Below the pieces are notes generated by a model. That model did not search any database, was not told the origin of the DNA, and saw only the letters and a list, made by a program, of their open reading frames with translations. The position numbers and the translations under genes are program-made. A stretch of DNA of 64,000 nucleotides from Candidatus Latescibacterota bacterium (lineage in GTDB: Bacteria; Latescibacterota; UBA2968; GCA-2709665), in NCBI GenBank assembly GCA_965248435.1, contig OZ252100.1, positions 672,001 to 736,000 of the forward strand, given 5' to 3'. Positions 5,695 to 41,393 of this stretch are shown in pieces. Positions within the stretch are counted from its first letter, which is position 1. Each line of letters starts with the position of its first letter.

Positions 5695-7092
5695 CTATAT
5701 ATGAATCGCACGTTTATCCACGGCCAGTGCCGCTTCTTTGATCGCCTCGGGCATGGTCGGATGGGCATGCACCGAGCGCGCGATGTCTTCCGTGCTGGCC
5801 ATGAATTCCAGAGCGACAGCCCCCTCGGCGATCATCTCCGAGGCGCGGGCGCCCAGGATGTGCATCCCGAGCAGTCGATCGGACCCCTCCTCACCGAGGA
5901 TCTTAACCAGACCCTCGGTGGACTCGAGGCTGTGCGCCCTGCCGTTCGCCATGAAGGGGAACTTACCGATGCGAACGCTCAGGCCTTCCTCCTTCGCCCC
6001 CTCTTCGGTCATCCCGACGGAGGCCAGTTCCGGATGCGTATAGACAACGCCCGGGATCGCGTCGTAGTTCACGTGGCCGGCGTGGCCCGCCATGGTTTCG
6101 ACGGCGGCGACGCCCTCCTCCTCGGCCTTGTGCGCGAGCATCGGACCGGCGATCACATCTCCGATCGCGTAGATGCCTGGAACGTTCGTTTCGAACTGCT
6201 CGTTGACGGCAATCCGTCCCGCCCTGTCCAGCTCCACGCCCACGCCGTCTGTGTTCAGGCCTTCGCTGTGGGCTCTGCGTCCAACGGCGACCAGCAGACG
6301 ATCGCAGATCTCCTGTCGCTTCTCCGACCCGGTGACGAGCTCGAGATGGACCTTTCCGCCCTTCACCTCGGAGGTGTCTGCCTTCGTCTCGAGCAGAAAC
6401 TCCAGGCCCTGCTTCTCGAGCACGCGCTTCAGTTGGGTGCCCATCTCCAGGTCCATCCCGGGAACGATATGGTCCAGCATCTCGACGACCAGGACCGACG
6501 AACCCAAACGGTTCCAGACGGATCCGAGTTCCAGACCGATGGCCCCGGCGCCGATCACGACGAGCCGCTCGGGCACTTCAGGCAGGCACAGGGCTTCGGT
6601 GGAGCTGAGAATATGAGTGCTGTCGAACGGAAGGCTCGGCAGTTCGATCGGGACGCTTCCGGAAGCGATCAGAATCCGCTCTCCGCTCACCGTCTCCGTG
6701 CCCTTCTCACCCACCACCTCCACGGACCCTGCGCTGATCAGGTGTGCTGTTCCCTGGAGATGTGTGACCTTGTTCTTCCTGAACAGACCGCTGACGCCTC
6801 GCGTCATGTTCTGGACGATCTCGTCCTTGCGCTTCATCATCGCGCCCAGGTCCAGGCCCACCTTTCCCGTCTTGATCCCATGGCGCTTGAACGTGGTTCG
6901 GGCCTCGGAAAACAGCTCGCTCGATTCCAGAAGCGCCTTGCTCGGGATGCAACCAATGTTGAGACACGTGCCACCCAGGGCCTCCTTCTCCACGCACGCC
7001 ACCCGCATCCCCAACTGAGCGGCCCGGATGGCTGCAACGTAGCCTCCCGGGCCGGCCCCGATCACGATCAGATCGAATTTCTCTTCCGGCAT
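5695..7092 (-). CDS. lpdA: Dihydrolipoyl dehydrogenase (E3)
   Basis: GAGPGGY, GGTCLNIGCIPSK and HAHPT motifs. Start reassigned to MPEEKFDL (ATG at 7092). Confidence 0.96.
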   Translation of the reverse strand: MPEEKFDLIVIGAGPGGYVAAIRAAQLGMRVACVEKEALGGTCLNIGCIPSKALLESSELFSEARTTFKRHGIKTGKVGLDLGAMMKRKDEIVQNMTRGVSGLFRKNKVTHLQGTAHLISAGSVEVVGEKGTETVSGERILIASGSVPIELPSLPFDSTHILSSTEALCLPEVPERLVVIGAGAIGLELGSVWNRLGSSVLVVEMLDHIVPGMDLEMGTQLKRVLEKQGLEFLLETKADTSEVKGGKVHLELVTGSEKRQEICDRLLVAVGRRAHSEGLNTDGVGVELDRAGRIAVNEQFETNVPGIYAIGDVIAGPMLAHKAEEEGVAAVETMAGHAGHVNYDAIPGVVYTHPELASVGMTEEGAKEEGLSVRIGKFPFMANGRAHSLESTEGLVKILGEEGSDRLLGMHILGARASEMIAEGAVALEFMASTEDIARSVHAHPTMPEAIKEAALAVDKRAIHI

Positions 7093-36230: not shown

Positions 36231-37190
36231 ATGAAGAAGAATGCCTATCTCGATTTTGAGCGACCTATCGCCCAGCTCGAAGAGAAGATCGATGAGATCA
36301 AGGCACAAGCGGCCGCGGAGAACTTAGACGTGCGGGCCGAACTGGCCTCTCTCGAGGCCAGGGTTAAGAAGGTGCAGGAAGAGATCTATTCCAACCTGAC
36401 GCGCTGGCAAAAATACCAGCTCTCCAGACACCCACTTCGACCGCACACCCTCGATTACGTCGAGCTTCTTTTAACAGACTTCGTGGAACTGCACGGAGAT
36501 CGCTCCTTTCGAGACGACCCTGCGATGGTTGGAGGATTCGGGCGAATCGACGGTGAGCCCATTATGATCGTAGGCCATCAGAAGGGTCGGAACACCAAGG
36601 AAAACCTTCAGAGAAACTTTGGCATGGCCAACCCCGAGGGATACCGTAAGGCATTGAGATTAATGCAATTAGCTGCGAAATTTTCGTGCCCCGTCCTCTG
36701 TCTGATCGATACACCCGGCGCCTACCCGGGGCTGGGCTCCGAAGAAAGAAGTGTCTCCGAAGCGATCGCTCGAAATCTTTTCGAGATCTCCAGTCTGCCG
36801 ACCCCAGTCATCGTTGCCATCGTGGGAGAAGGGGCCAGCGGTGGCGCAATTGGAATAGGAATCGGGGATCGTATCCTGATGCTCGAAAACGCATGGTATT
36901 CCGTGATCAATCCCGAGTCCTGTTCACTCATTCTATGGCGCAACCGTGATTACAAAGAAGAGGCAGCCGAAGCCATGAAGATCACGGCGCCCGATCTTTT
37001 GGAATTGGGGATCATCGACAAGGTCGTACCGGAACCCTTTGGAGGGGCCCATCGAAATCACGACGAAACGGCCGGGGCATTGAAGCGAGCGGTAGTGGAA
37101 GGCCTGGACCAACTCAGACAGGTTCCCTTGGACCAGCTCGTTCGAATGCGGCGAGAAAAATTCTATCGCATGGGAGTATGGGAAGAGTGA
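36231..37190 (+). CDS. accA: Acetyl-CoA carboxylase carboxyltransferase alpha subunit
   Basis: [21 protein letters not shown] and IDTPGAYPG motifs. Confidence 0.97.
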
Positions 37191-37214: not shown

Positions 37215-37245
37215 AAAAAATGGGCCACGTCAGGTCCATTTTTTT
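37215..37245 (+). terminator. Intrinsic terminator after accA (possibly bidirectional)
   Basis: AAAAAA-TGGGCC-acgtca-GGTCCA-TTTTTTT. Confidence 0.75.
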
Positions 37246-37457
37246 GTTGTCGGCAGAGATACTACCCTCTTGCCCGACTAACCTATTGTGGCTTCATCTG
37301 CTACTTGAGATTACATTTCACAAACTATTTGAGGCGCGTCCAAAGCCGATTCTCCGTCACGTTTACACTTAAAAATACTTTTTGTATCGATTCGCTTAAG
37401 TTTCAAGATGTTATCTCACCGAGCTTCTTCTTAAGCGAAATTTGTCTCAAATAAGTC

Positions 37458-37541
37458 TTGACTGAAGGCTGTTGTGCATATATATTCTGACTGTTCTGAA
37501 CAAGCCAAAAGCTTGTATGTTATTGTGCAACAATCTATTAT
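37458..37541 (+). promoter_or_regulatory. Two tandem sigma70-type promoters facing a non-coding region
   Basis: TTGACT (37458)-N17-TATATT (37481) and TTGTAT (37513)-N17-TATTAT (37536). Confidence 0.65.
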
Positions 37542-37575
37542 AACATAATATGTACGTCCGTTACAACGTTACTCC

Positions 37576-37742
37576 ACTGGGAGGGAAAACGGGGAATCTG
37601 GGTCACCTTTGATTCATCGATGCGGTCGTCTTCCGAAACTGTTGTGATGATCGTAGGCAATCCCTTATCTGTGAACCGGAGGTCGAGACCCTTTGTCTCA
37701 CGAGTACTACCGCAAGTGATTCCAAGGTCAACCTCCCTTAGT
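37576..37742 (+). ncRNA. Candidate structured ncRNA domain A (nested long-range helices)
   Basis: GGGAGG/CCTCCC, GGAATC/GATTCC, TGCGGT/ACCGCA, CTTCCG/CGGAGG, plus two side hairpins; no ORF of 60 aa or more. Confidence 0.5.
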
Positions 37743-37839
37743 CATCGTTTCTCCAACCGACGTTTTCTCACTCACAGAAGTTGATTCAGAAGGCGTTTCT
37801 TGTAGGCTCGGATCTTCATTTGCCTTTTCAGTTTGAATT

Positions 37840-38048
37840 GGGCGGAATGGAGCGCTGAGGGTCTATCAGGTAAGATCTGTCTCCGGAGGGAGGCAGGGCA
37901 GGTTCTCTGCCGGTCAGCCAAGGCATTATTGGGGGAGATAATTCCTTGAACCAGACCGATAAAATCAGAGAGCTTGGTCTCTCTTCCGATACGTCACAGT
38001 CGAACCTGGATGATGACCCGAAGCCAACTCCATCCGCCCTTTTTTTTT
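37840..38048 (+). ncRNA. ~200-nt rod-shaped RNA, 6S RNA-like
   Basis: Nested pairing from GGGCGG-a-ATGGAG/CTCCAT-CCGCCC inward to an apical loop near 37932. G-U pairs favour the + strand, and a T9 tract follows. Confidence 0.6.
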
Positions 38049-38375: not shown

Positions 38376-38407
38376 AAAAAAACCGGCTGAGATCTCAGCC
38401 GGTTTTT
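38376..38407 (-). terminator. Intrinsic terminator (bidirectional) downstream of the response regulator
   Basis: Perfect palindrome AAAAACCGGCTGAGATCTCAGCCGGTTTTT. Confidence 0.8.
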
Positions 38408-38751
38408 CTAAAAGCAGGGTTTACGCTGGAACTAGGAGGTTTCGCCCAGCACCTCATCCACCTTGTAGCTCGCGGACCCAGAGGTTTGAAATCCACCTCT
38501 TCAGCCGTAGAGGAGACCACGATGAAAGGAAGCGAAGGAAAACGCTCCTGAGCAGCCTTCATGAGCTCGAGACCCGTCATGTTCGGCATCTGATTATCCG
38601 TGACGACGAGGTCCACGGCTCCACCCTCTAAAACCTTAAGGGCTTCACGCCCATCTTCAGCCTCAAGGATTTGGACCTCCTCTTCTTCCAGCAACGACCT
38701 GATTACCAGCCGCACTTCAAACAAATCATCTACGATAAGAACCTGTTTCAT
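38395..38751 (-). CDS. Stand-alone receiver-domain response regulator (C-terminus possibly frameshifted)
   Basis: LIVDD, AEDGREAL and VTDNQMPNMTG motifs. Promoter TTGCTT-N17-TATATT at 38824-38796. Confidence 0.8.
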   Translation of the reverse strand: MKQVLIVDDLFEVRLVIRSLLEEEEVQILEAEDGREALKVLEGGAVDLVVTDNQMPNMTGLELMKAAQERFPSLPFIVVSSTAEEVDFKPLGPRATRWMRCWAKPPSSSVNPAFRKTG

Positions 38752-38828: not shown

Positions 38829-41213
38829 TTAGGGCCTCGGCAACCAGCCTTCGGCCTTGATGGCCTCCTTACCGACATCGATTCGAATCGCCCCTCTTAG
38901 GTCCGTGCGATAGGTTGTGATCCCCATCACGTCGAACCTTTGAATGACTTCCGGAGCCGGGTGTCCAAAGCGGTTGTTCGTTCCGCAGGAGATGGTCGCG
39001 AGGCTAGGATTCACGGCTTCGAGGAATCTGCGGGTCGAGGAAGTACGTGATCCGTGGTGCGCAACCTTCAGGACCTCGGAATGGAGCCGATCACCCCATC
39101 CAAGGAGGTCTGGGTCCGTCTCTTGTTCGATATCTCCAGTCAGGAGCACCGCCTTCCCTCCATAGGTCAGCCTCAGAACAACAGAGCCGTTGTTCAACCC
39201 ATCCAGCGATACACCCGCTTCCGAGACAAAGTGTGGGTTCGGGTGAAGGACGAGCCCCCCCACCCCACCAAGCCCGACCAGGCTGTCCCCGGCCGCAACG
39301 GCGTAGTACGAGATACCTCTCTCCTGAATCAGGGTCCTGATCCTCTGAGCGGTCCAGGAATCATAACGTTGCCCTGAATCCAGGTAGGCACCGATTTCGA
39401 GCGTCTCGAGCAGCGTCACCAGTCCTCCGATGTGGTCACCGTGCGGATGCGACGCGACCACTACATCGATCCGCTCGATGCCCAGTTCCCTCAGAAAAGG
39501 GACCAGGACACGCTCCCCCACGTCATATCCTTGTTGTCGCACCCCGCCGTCGACAAGCATCGTCCTTCCGCGAGGAGACCTGAGAAAAACCGCATCTCCC
39601 TGACCGACATCCAACACAGTGATCTCCAGATTAGACGGGCGACGAATCAGGTCTTCCCAGACCCAGAGGTTCGCGAACGCGAGCGCACAAAAGGCAATCC
39701 ATTTGCCCACTTTCGGCTGACGAACCTCGGGGAGAACGGTCGTGAGGACGCAGAGGTAGAGTCCAACGAACGCCCACGATGGCTTTGGCACTTCCACGAG
39801 CGCCCAGTCCGGTTCGCCCAGCAGACCGGCACAGGCAATCGCTGCCTTCAACACTGCCCAGATCGCGCCATTTATCAGGATCGCGACCTGTACAAGAGAG
39901 ACCGAAAGGATGGCTGAAAGCAGCCCGAGTGACACTGCAGCTCCAACAAGGGGTACCACAACGAGATTTCCCAGAATCGAAATCGGGGACAGATGTCCAA
40001 AATAGGTCGCGACAAATGGGGCGGTCCCTGCCTGAGCAGCGAGCGAAACGGCAACAGGCATAGAAATCCACTTCTTCCAAACCTGCCTCCCCTGGGGCAC
40101 CCACTCCTGAATGGCCGGGCAGAGTGCGAGGATGGCCGCGGTGGCCGCGAACGAAAGCTGAAAGCCGACGTCGAAAAGCTCCTGCGGCCGATAGGCGAGC
40201 AAGCCCAACCCAGCGACACCCAACGTGTTCAGCCCATCCCCGTCCCGGTCGCTCAGTGCCCCCAGGACAACCAGGGACCCCATGATCGAAGCCCGAAGAA
40301 CCGAGGGGCGAAGTCCCGTCACGAGTGCATACATCAAGACCCCGGCCACAGTCATCACGCCGGTCCATCGCTGCCCTAGGCCGAGGCAGCGCAGTCCAAA
40401 GAAGATGGACGCCGCAACCAGGCCCACGTGCAGTCCAGAAACGGCCAGTACGTGATTGACGCCCGACCTCGCGAACGCCTCTCGGACCTCCTCTGGCACG
40501 CTCCGCTTCTCTCCAAGAAGGAGACCTTTGAGAAGGCCGGCAGGCGCGCCAGAGAGATTCTTATCTACAGATCGACGAACCGTTCTTCTAATGGGCAGGA
40601 TGACCTGCTTCCAGAGCCCATTCCTTCTTCCAGGCCGGATTTCGACGATCTGTCCGGGGTCTCGTACTTTGGCCGTCCCATATATCCCCTTTCGCTCCAG
40701 GTGGCTCCGATAATCGAAGCCTCCAGGATTCCTCGCAGGCTCGGGCCTGCGCAGCCGGACACGGAGGTGTAACGAATCTCCGTATTCGATCTCAGGACCG
40801 GGTGCCTTAAATCGAATCAAGACGGAGCCACAGGTTGAAAATTGCTTTGTGTCCAGCAGGGCGCGTTCAACGTCTAGAACGAGGCTCAAATCATCCCCCA
40901 CCCATTCGGGCTCTCGAGAAACCTCACCGATGATCTCGACCTCACCCCGGGGATCGATCCAGTGGACGATGTGGCGTGGAGGAAGCAGCGTTGCCATTTC
41001 GTAACGCATCATCCCGGAGGAACAAAGAAGAAAGCCGATGTTCCATCCTATCCACCGACCTCTCCACTTTGAGATCGAGCCAACAAGGAGGAGTGAAAAC
41101 GATACCGTTGTAGTGGCGACAGCAGCGGCACCCGGCAATGCCCAGGAATTGCCCAGGGCGATTCCCAGTCCAAACCAGACGGCTGCCTCGAGTGCAGGAC
41201 GTCGACGTCCCAT
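38829..41213 (-). CDS. comEC: DNA internalization competence protein ComEC/Rec2
   Basis: RNPGGFDY, HVLAVSGLH, GFQLSF, DVGQGD, HPHGDH and HHGS motifs. Start reassigned to ATG 41213 after GAGG. Confidence 0.95.
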   Translation of the reverse strand: MGRRRPALEAAVWFGLGIALGNSWALPGAAAVATTTVSFSLLLVGSISKWRGRWIGWNIGFLLCSSGMMRYEMATLLPPRHIVHWIDPRGEVEIIGEVSREPEWVGDDLSLVLDVERALLDTKQFSTCGSVLIRFKAPGPEIEYGDSLHLRVRLRRPEPARNPGGFDYRSHLERKGIYGTAKVRDPGQIVEIRPGRRNGLWKQVILPIRRTVRRSVDKNLSGAPAGLLKGLLLGEKRSVPEEVREAFARSGVNHVLAVSGLHVGLVAASIFFGLRCLGLGQRWTGVMTVAGVLMYALVTGLRPSVLRASIMGSLVVLGALSDRDGDGLNTLGVAGLGLLAYRPQELFDVGFQLSFAATAAILALCPAIQEWVPQGRQVWKKWISMPVAVSLAAQAGTAPFVATYFGHLSPISILGNLVVVPLVGAAVSLGLLSAILSVSLVQVAILINGAIWAVLKAAIACAGLLGEPDWALVEVPKPSWAFVGLYLCVLTTVLPEVRQPKVGKWIAFCALAFANLWVWEDLIRRPSNLEITVLDVGQGDAVFLRSPRGRTMLVDGGVRQQGYDVGERVLVPFLRELGIERIDVVVASHPHGDHIGGLVTLLETLEIGAYLDSGQRYDSWTAQRIRTLIQERGISYYAVAAGDSLVGLGGVGGLVLHPNPHFVSEAGVSLDGLNNGSVVLRLTYGGKAVLLTGDIEQETDPDLLGWGDRLHSEVLKVAHHGSRTSSTRRFLEAVNPSLATISCGTNNRFGHPAPEVIQRFDVMGITTYRTDLRGAIRIDVGKEAIKAEGWLPRP

Positions 41214-41393
41214 ATTCCTCCCCACTGCCCACCGATCCCGTGTACTCACACCCCTCGCACGAACGTGCAATTCCCATACCGCCTCGAAACCTCCCAAAAT
41301 AGGCCGATTCCGAGCCACATAGGGAGGAACATCCCTTTCACTCCCTGAACAGGTCTTTCCCCCTCATCCAGCGAGCGTTTTCCCAATAATTGT

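Follow-up and report, generated by a model that had tools for sequence, protein, structure and literature searches.

The window, by which we mean the whole 64,000-nucleotide stretch of DNA analysed, carries an accA gene whose product has its best named homologues in Ca. Latescibacterota, followed by a convergent comEC/Rec2 gene (Table 1). An earlier note on this DNA had placed, in the gap between accA and a response-regulator gene, a dedicated and undescribed non-coding RNA transcription unit, with two promoters and flanking terminators, consisting either of one multi-domain RNA of ~475 nt or of a precursor processed into two. Both flanking hairpins are present and are probable terminators, and the one that follows accA probably insulates the RNA gene from accA. 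The region is also free of longer + strand ORFs, as claimed, with none of at least 60 amino acids between the promoter and the T9 tract and a longest one of 54 amino acids (37620-37784). The length of ~475 nt holds for a span that starts at domain A, the first of the proposed folds, while the whole unit, from its predicted start near 37493 to the T9 tract, comes to ~556 nt.

Table 1. Features of the accA–comEC interval in window coordinates
Feature	Coordinates	Strand	Description
accA	36231..37190	+	Upstream synteny anchor; NCBIfam PRK05724/TIGR00513 above cut-off
Hairpin with U-tracts, 3′ of accA	37215..37245	+	12-bp inverted repeat; probable terminator
IHF-like site	37401..37413	+	One mismatch to presumed consensus WATCAANNNNTTR
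σ70-type promoter	37458..37486	+	TTGACT-17-TATATT; predicted start near 37493
Variable 5′ leader	37493..37839	+	347 nt; holds domain A and the middle hairpin; not class-conserved
Rod RNA, putative mature form	37840..38039	+	Closed by a 12-13-bp stem; z -5.67; covariance model and covariation
Internal loop, 5′ strand	37882..37887	+	Family motif YCYRGG; one-base variant in the window
Apical loop YYGGGGGAGA	37929..37938	+	Invariant; on an 11-12-bp, strongly covarying stem
Internal loop, 3′ strand (8-nt element)	37988..37995	+	UGCA core in relatives, UACG in the window
T9 tract	38040..38048	+	Abuts the closing stem; probable 3′ end
Perfect inverted repeat with A/T tails	38376..38407		Probable terminator for convergent genes
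comEC/Rec2	38829..41318	-	Convergent, downstream synteny anchor; TIGR00361 above cut-off

Known RNAs were sought by Rfam, tRNA and tmRNA scans of the whole window, which returned no matches: nothing reached an Rfam gathering score, ARAGORN was likewise empty, and the absence of RNase P and tmRNA reported in the earlier note was thereby borne out. RNase P, tmRNA and SRP RNA signatures were also absent, by Rfam and ARAGORN, from the window and 13 of the 51 related loci described below. A permissive Rfam scan of the gap between accA and the response-regulator gene gave terminator-hairpin noise only.

The response-regulator gene (38395-38751, - strand) is a stand-alone gene that is apparently frameshifted near its 3′ end; family models cover only residues ~1-87, and the tail resembles, in another frame, that of an intact copy at locus L031. 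By tblastn, such a gene lies between the RNA and comEC in just one of the 51 loci, with a possible remnant in L022. On a larger scale, most long ORFs between 11899 and 62915 of the window are on the + strand, a marked strand bias over ~50 kb; a similar architecture is reported for Gemmatimonadota (PMC11237797).

A conserved rod-shaped RNA between accA and comEC

Relatives were collected by searching a genome collection with a lineage-specific AccA motif, which yielded 51 loci on 49 contigs, mostly titled Latescibacterota with a few Gemmatimonadota or unnamed bacteria, and ~12 kb was examined per genome. The retrieval pattern is lineage-specific by design, and the counts given here speak for that lineage, not for other phyla. 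accA is followed by a convergent comEC in 46 of the 51 loci, and the loop motif YYGGGGGAGA occurs downstream of accA in 47. Among the four loci that lack the motif, L029 is a partial second accA, and L048 retains the 5′ half of the rod, the match stopping near the contig end. In the other two, L005 and L019, a different gene, by eye rpsT, follows accA in place of the RNA-comEC block and comEC is absent, suggesting that the RNA has moved or been lost in that sister lineage. The rod of L048 (~6040-6237) ends immediately ahead of the apical loop and gives way to unrelated AT-rich sequence, probably a misassembly. Two chromosomes carry two accA-motif loci each, OX638317.1 (L008 and L047) and OZ251458.1 (L029 and L039); L008 and L047 lie near opposite ends of OX638317.1 and have slightly different rods, possibly through a strain merge or a duplication.

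A covariance model of the rod, built from the window and 19 loci, finds 46 full-length homologues in the 51 loci, 27 of them outside the training set, with a conserved length of 165-204 nt. Five of the matches are short forms of 165-171 nt that score 29-39 bits. L017 scores only 10.8 bits (E 0.42), yet the loop, the two internal-loop motifs and the promoter are all present there. The rod gene occurs as one copy per locus, inside a conserved block of core genes. A mobile-element reading was dropped, since blastn against 50,697 phage and 72,556 plasmid records gave no match at E <= 1. Judged from these sequence comparisons, the Latescibacterota locus is a conserved, single-copy, stand-alone structured-RNA gene.

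The fold proposed for the 200-nt rod ahead of the T9 tract is confirmed. Its predicted energy of -93 kcal/mol is better than that of every one of 200 shuffled sequences, and 21 rods folded one by one all fall below their shuffles (z -2.5 to -7.1). The rod is unbranched, the covariance model having no branch points. From the ends inward, the closing stem gives way to a variable region, reduced in the short forms, and then to a short helix that covaries and an internal loop; beyond the internal loop, a helix rich in purines and U leads to two bulged helices, with a 3′ bulge rich in A, and to the apical stem of 11-12 bp with its invariant loop.

Conservation and covariation in relatives, which the earlier note had named as a check, bear the rod out: it is kept after accA, and in a 20-row alignment made on sequence alone two-sided changes affect 29 of 48 pairs and 82.9% of the cells are paired, values reached in none of 500 shuffles. 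Slid controls of the alignment give 10-15 pairs and 39-49% paired, a comparison that favours the structure tested, which had been chosen from consensus folding and averaged pair probabilities on the trimmed alignment. The number of further pair types is not above that of shuffles (237/500). RNAalifold recovers only 16 pairs from the untrimmed sequence-only alignment, because of register shifts in that alignment. In the model-fitted alignment of 49 matches, including the L048 fragment and one reverse-strand match, 32 of the 48 pairs are two-sided. In fixed register, pairing in the two middle helices reaches only 55-70%, owing to slippage or to real variation. The rod is a real, conserved, structured RNA gene.

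The pairing also reveals the strand, G-U pairs outnumbering A-C juxtapositions in the rod helices by 139 to 44, from which it follows that the RNA is the + strand. The same excess, together with a dedicated conserved promoter and a 3′ terminator, makes it highly improbable that the locus is a DNA element or a mere terminator region, even if hairpins and IHF-like sites occur in DNA elements too. The gap in the window contains no DnaA box, and single near-matches appear in only five of the 51 loci; a replication origin was rejected for want of a DnaA box cluster.

Promoter, 3′ end and variable leader

The σ70-type promoter is conserved with the rod. A TTGAC-N16-19-TAYAYT pattern lies within 600 nt after accA in 48 of the 51 loci, as well as in the window. 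Of the two + strand promoters proposed previously, the promoter scan returned this one alone; the second is not conserved, and we rejected it because relatives lack a conserved -35/-10 pair at the corresponding offset. The stretch concerned (37515-37550) is an AT-rich imperfect inverted repeat, and visual inspection shows a similar repeat, at about +25 to +55, in many loci. Upstream, an IHF-like site (at most one mismatch to the sequence that we take to be the IHF consensus) precedes the -35 box by 56-59 nt in 40 of 49 promoter regions, where the background rate is 0.00028 per position. Far upstream of the promoter, an IHF-like stretch in reverse orientation (~37270-37285 in the window) was noted by eye in many loci. 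Two imperfect inverted matches of 18-19 nt link the rod to sequence that precedes the promoter (37251-37268/37895-37912 and 37402-37420/37932-37950) and are probably due to chance.

At the 3′ end, the rod in relatives is followed by a U-run or by a separate terminator hairpin a few nucleotides downstream, as judged partly by eye. A separate hairpin is missing from the window, L049 and the L001 clade, in which the U-run abuts the long-range closing stem; there the 200-nt rod may itself serve as the terminator hairpin. What lies downstream is thus a terminator or U-run and then a convergent gene, an arrangement that does not fit a cis-regulatory leader or riboswitch. With no same-strand gene downstream, the RNA would act in trans.

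Between promoter and rod lies a leader that varies by lineage. The promoter-rod distance ranges from 63 to 393 nt across 48 sequences and its length tracks clades, being only 63-65 nt in a clade of 16 loci. The leader of the window folds near chance (z -0.7) and aligns significantly with two of 16 leaders (L049, z 45; L031, z 5.5). Domain A (37576-37742), for which the earlier note had claimed structure, folds about as well as its shuffles (z = -0.99, 31 of 200 equally good). The middle hairpin fares little better: its arms are present, at 37759 and 37788, but its fold does not exceed chance (z = -1.6, matched by 6% of 300 shuffles). Three further ideas were discarded, namely that domain A is a decayed rod copy (rod-model score of at most 1.9 bits, a single chance nhmmer match), that the leader is a rod copy (own-genome leader-versus-rod alignments at p >= 0.05 in 15 of 15) and that the leader encodes a small conserved protein (ORFs differ among the seven sequences examined, with ORFs at the leader-rod boundary disregarded).

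These data bear on the proposal of a large multi-domain RNA, or of a precursor yielding two functional RNAs, domain A and the rod. Precedents exist in the CoRP RNA of Corynebacterium, an uncatalogued intergenic RNA described in part of PMC11077062 as cut from 516 nt into fragments of 318 and 198 nt that both bind RNA polymerase in RIP-seq, and in the tandem 6S genes that PMC7726162 mentions for the Bacillus cereus group. The 347-nt leader and 200-nt rod resemble the two CoRP fragments in size, a likeness by description, not by sequence; unlike what those passages describe for CoRP RNA, the leader here is not conserved, and a tandem 6S arrangement, which would match the idea of a pair, differs in that domain A does not duplicate the rod. 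The window and L049 share one domain A helix, with a changed pair, and several long leaders fold better than their shuffles, with z down to -4.0. Set against this are the 63-65-nt leaders of 16 loci, the lack of leader homology across clades, and the near-chance fold of domain A (z -1.0), and we regard a second functional RNA as very unlikely. Thus, a dedicated, undescribed transcription unit stands, on the strength of conservation, covariation and a conserved promoter and 3′ end, whereas its 475-nt multi-domain or tandem form does not. The conserved gene is the 165-204-nt rod alone, smaller and simpler than had been proposed. The contrast between a conserved rod and a variable leader indicates that the leader is dispensable; it looks like a lineage-specific precursor leader, and we infer that the gene is transcribed and the precursor processed.

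Invariant apical loop and conserved internal loop

In the apical loop, GGGGGAGA is unchanged in 48 of 48 aligned rows, rows that had been picked by that motif, against a mean column identity of 52% for the rod alignment, and its supporting stem shows two-sided changes in 8 of 12 pairs. The loop is predicted to be single-stranded (median unpaired probability 0.95) and contains GGAG. A trans-acting RNA with such a loop could be a base-pairing regulator or ribosome decoy whose G-rich loop would pair with targets rich in C and U or with the 16S rRNA at its anti-Shine-Dalgarno end. We consider this unlikely: the G5 run never changes to A in the 48 rows, though A would presumably improve anti-Shine-Dalgarno pairing; a 200-nt rod with a second fixed motif exceeds the needs of a seed; and perfect complements of the loop are rare in the scanned loci, a test of low power.

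The second motif is the internal loop. Its 5′ strand matches the motif YCYRGG in 40 of 47 loci, and in 39 of those 40 it precedes the apical loop by 45-48 nt; the motif is missing from the short forms. The 20 aligned long forms have a consensus loop of 6-7 x 8 nt and the five short forms one of ~0 x 10, and a size of 11-13 x 13-14 would be reached only with the adjacent weak helix melted. In 47 of 48 sequences the 8-nt element on the 3′ strand is found 47-53 nt after the apical loop, and in 45 of 48 at least 6 of its nucleotides are self-complementary, the window, with UACG, being an exception. On the AccA tree, its outer positions change from A-U through G-U to G-C in one clade and from G-C through G-U to A-U at two tips, so that the pairing-preserving changes amount to few independent events, and changes at the inner positions are split between compatible and incompatible ones. 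As far as such substitutions can tell, the outer changes could fit a 2-bp mini-hairpin or intermolecular kissing equally. The UACG of the window breaks the palindrome, which favours the mini-hairpin over kissing, and this core fits what we take to be a tetraloop of the UNCG type.

The fixed spacing of two motifs suggests a possible, if on balance doubtful, alternative, in which the rod belongs to a new class of housekeeping RNP or scaffold RNA and acts as a ruler, keeping ~45 bp between the G5AGA loop and the UGCA internal loop as sequence-specific sites for a protein or complex other than RNA polymerase, perhaps dimerising via the 8-nt element. The invariance of the loop in an otherwise divergent rod, the fixed spacings between motifs, the self-complementary element with its pairing-preserving steps and the absence of Rfam or 6S similarity are consistent with such a role. 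No linked candidate partner gene is found in the 51 loci, however, and the dimer is weakened in particular by outer pairs that could equally close the intramolecular mini-hairpin, by the non-palindromic UACG of the window, by the split inner changes and by a compensatory path of few independent events.

Comparison with polymerase-binding RNAs and proposed role

The rod is not recognised as a 6S RNA by sequence-structure models. Neither the window nor 13 of the 51 loci contain a match to the 6S model (Rfam RF00013) at gathering score, and RF00013 and other 6S models give none even at E <= 10 in three permissive scans of short regions, which return nothing but noise from terminator hairpins, while E. 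coli 6S, as a positive control, scores 139.8 bits. Conversely, the new rod model gives E. coli 6S at most 1.3 bits. This silence in both directions, together with a bubble about half the canonical size, is the reason that we do not file the rod as a 6S RNA.

In overall form, the rod is nonetheless reminiscent of 6S. Excerpts of PMC8414754 and PMC8876501 describe 6S RNAs as rods of 160-200 nt, and the rod here, at 165-204 nt, is unbranched with closing and apical stems and is likewise a single chromosomal gene in conserved synteny. In the long form, its internal loop is ~40-50 nt away from the 5′ end, like the bubble of the Rfam model; a purine run follows the internal loop, comparable to GGGag in the Rfam consensus; the apical arm is bulged, with an A-rich 3′ bulge; and the spacing from the bubble motif to the apical loop is ruler-like, which argues for a 6S-like reading. 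A mini-hairpin is possible on the 3′ strand of the bubble, as in B. subtilis 6S-1 according to part of PMC8876501. Moreover, 6S primary sequence is described as poorly conserved and new polymerase-binding RNAs as able to escape searches (PMC11077062, in part).

Several features differ from 6S. Specifically, the bubble measures 6-7 x 8 or 0 x 10, against 16 x 13 in the Rfam 6S model, the terminal stem is longer, and the excess of single strand is on the 3′ side, the reverse of 6S; ensemble unpairedness, at 9/5 for E. coli 6S versus medians of 4/8 for the rods, does not discriminate. We know of no description of the invariant G5AGA loop as a 6S feature. The synteny is accA-comEC, and none of the 6S neighbours named in the source excerpts (zapA/ygfA, rarA/uspA) flanks the rod. 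The excerpted PMC8414754 gives as the hallmark of product-RNA (pRNA) templates a GG at pRNA positions 4/5 or 5/6 with an A just upstream. By an eye count, 10 of the 20 rows aligned have a template CC-N3-A; it lies at the bubble's apical edge and would set the pRNA start at the wrong edge of the bubble. Likenesses to a σ54 (-24/-12) mimic, Y RNA, SRP and T-box, judged by eye against the motifs of each, were dropped because spacing or motifs failed across the alignment.

Polymerase-binding RNAs exist beyond the 6S and Ms1 families, as CoRP RNA illustrates in the passages of PMC11077062 considered here. Ms1 of Actinobacteria, described in part of PMC9130861 as ~300 nt long with extra terminal hairpins and as binding core polymerase, resembles the rod in being a lineage-specific structured RNA in conserved synteny on which canonical 6S searches fail, but differs from the unbranched rod of 165-204 nt as there described. 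The rod has neither the about 230-300 nt with terminal hairpins that would mark an Ms1 RNA nor the ~516-nt conserved transcript that would mark a CoRP RNA. The rod RNA is apparently an undescribed family, absent from Rfam 15. The open-access literature searched contained no paper with both 'Latescibacter' and '6S RNA', and none among the matches listed described the rod RNA, which large motif-discovery supplements could include.

Our analysis points to a divergent polymerase decoy as the most likely identity, with a substantial chance of a new class. In the form that we favour, and to which we give even chances, the rod is a 6S-like RNA-polymerase decoy cut from a longer precursor. In the window, the σ70-type promoter with its upstream IHF-like site would drive a precursor of ~556 nt, whose dispensable 5′ leader would be trimmed to leave the rod, protected by its closing stem. 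The rod would bind RNA polymerase as a promoter mimic, with the small conserved internal loop standing in for the open bubble, perhaps widened as the neighbouring purine/U-rich helix melts, and the bulged apical arm, of fixed length, taking the place of upstream DNA. The polymerase would then be released by short product RNAs, for which the 5′ strand at ~37870-37888 would be the template. Short of even, yet to be taken seriously, is a new, non-6S class of core housekeeping RNA across the sampled Latescibacterota, a rigid rod with the G5AGA loop and the UGCA bulge at fixed spacing that would serve as a scaffold or decoy, possibly as a kissing dimer, or would bind polymerase with a mirrored 6S geometry.

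Both the polymerase-decoy reading and the new-class reading are directly testable, as the rod is short and easily made by in vitro transcription and complete chromosomes are available for many of its carriers. Whichever reading holds, the phylum gains an RNA family, and no paper in the searched literature names a 6S RNA for that phylum. If the rod does not bind polymerase, it represents a conserved RNA class that is new, with two sharply defined motifs that lend themselves to mutagenesis. If it does bind, promoter mimicry is possible with a bubble of half the usual size and a loop that never varies, searches for 6S RNA must widen, and the finding bears on the proposal, set out in part of PMC11077062, that every bacterium has an abundant polymerase-binding RNA.
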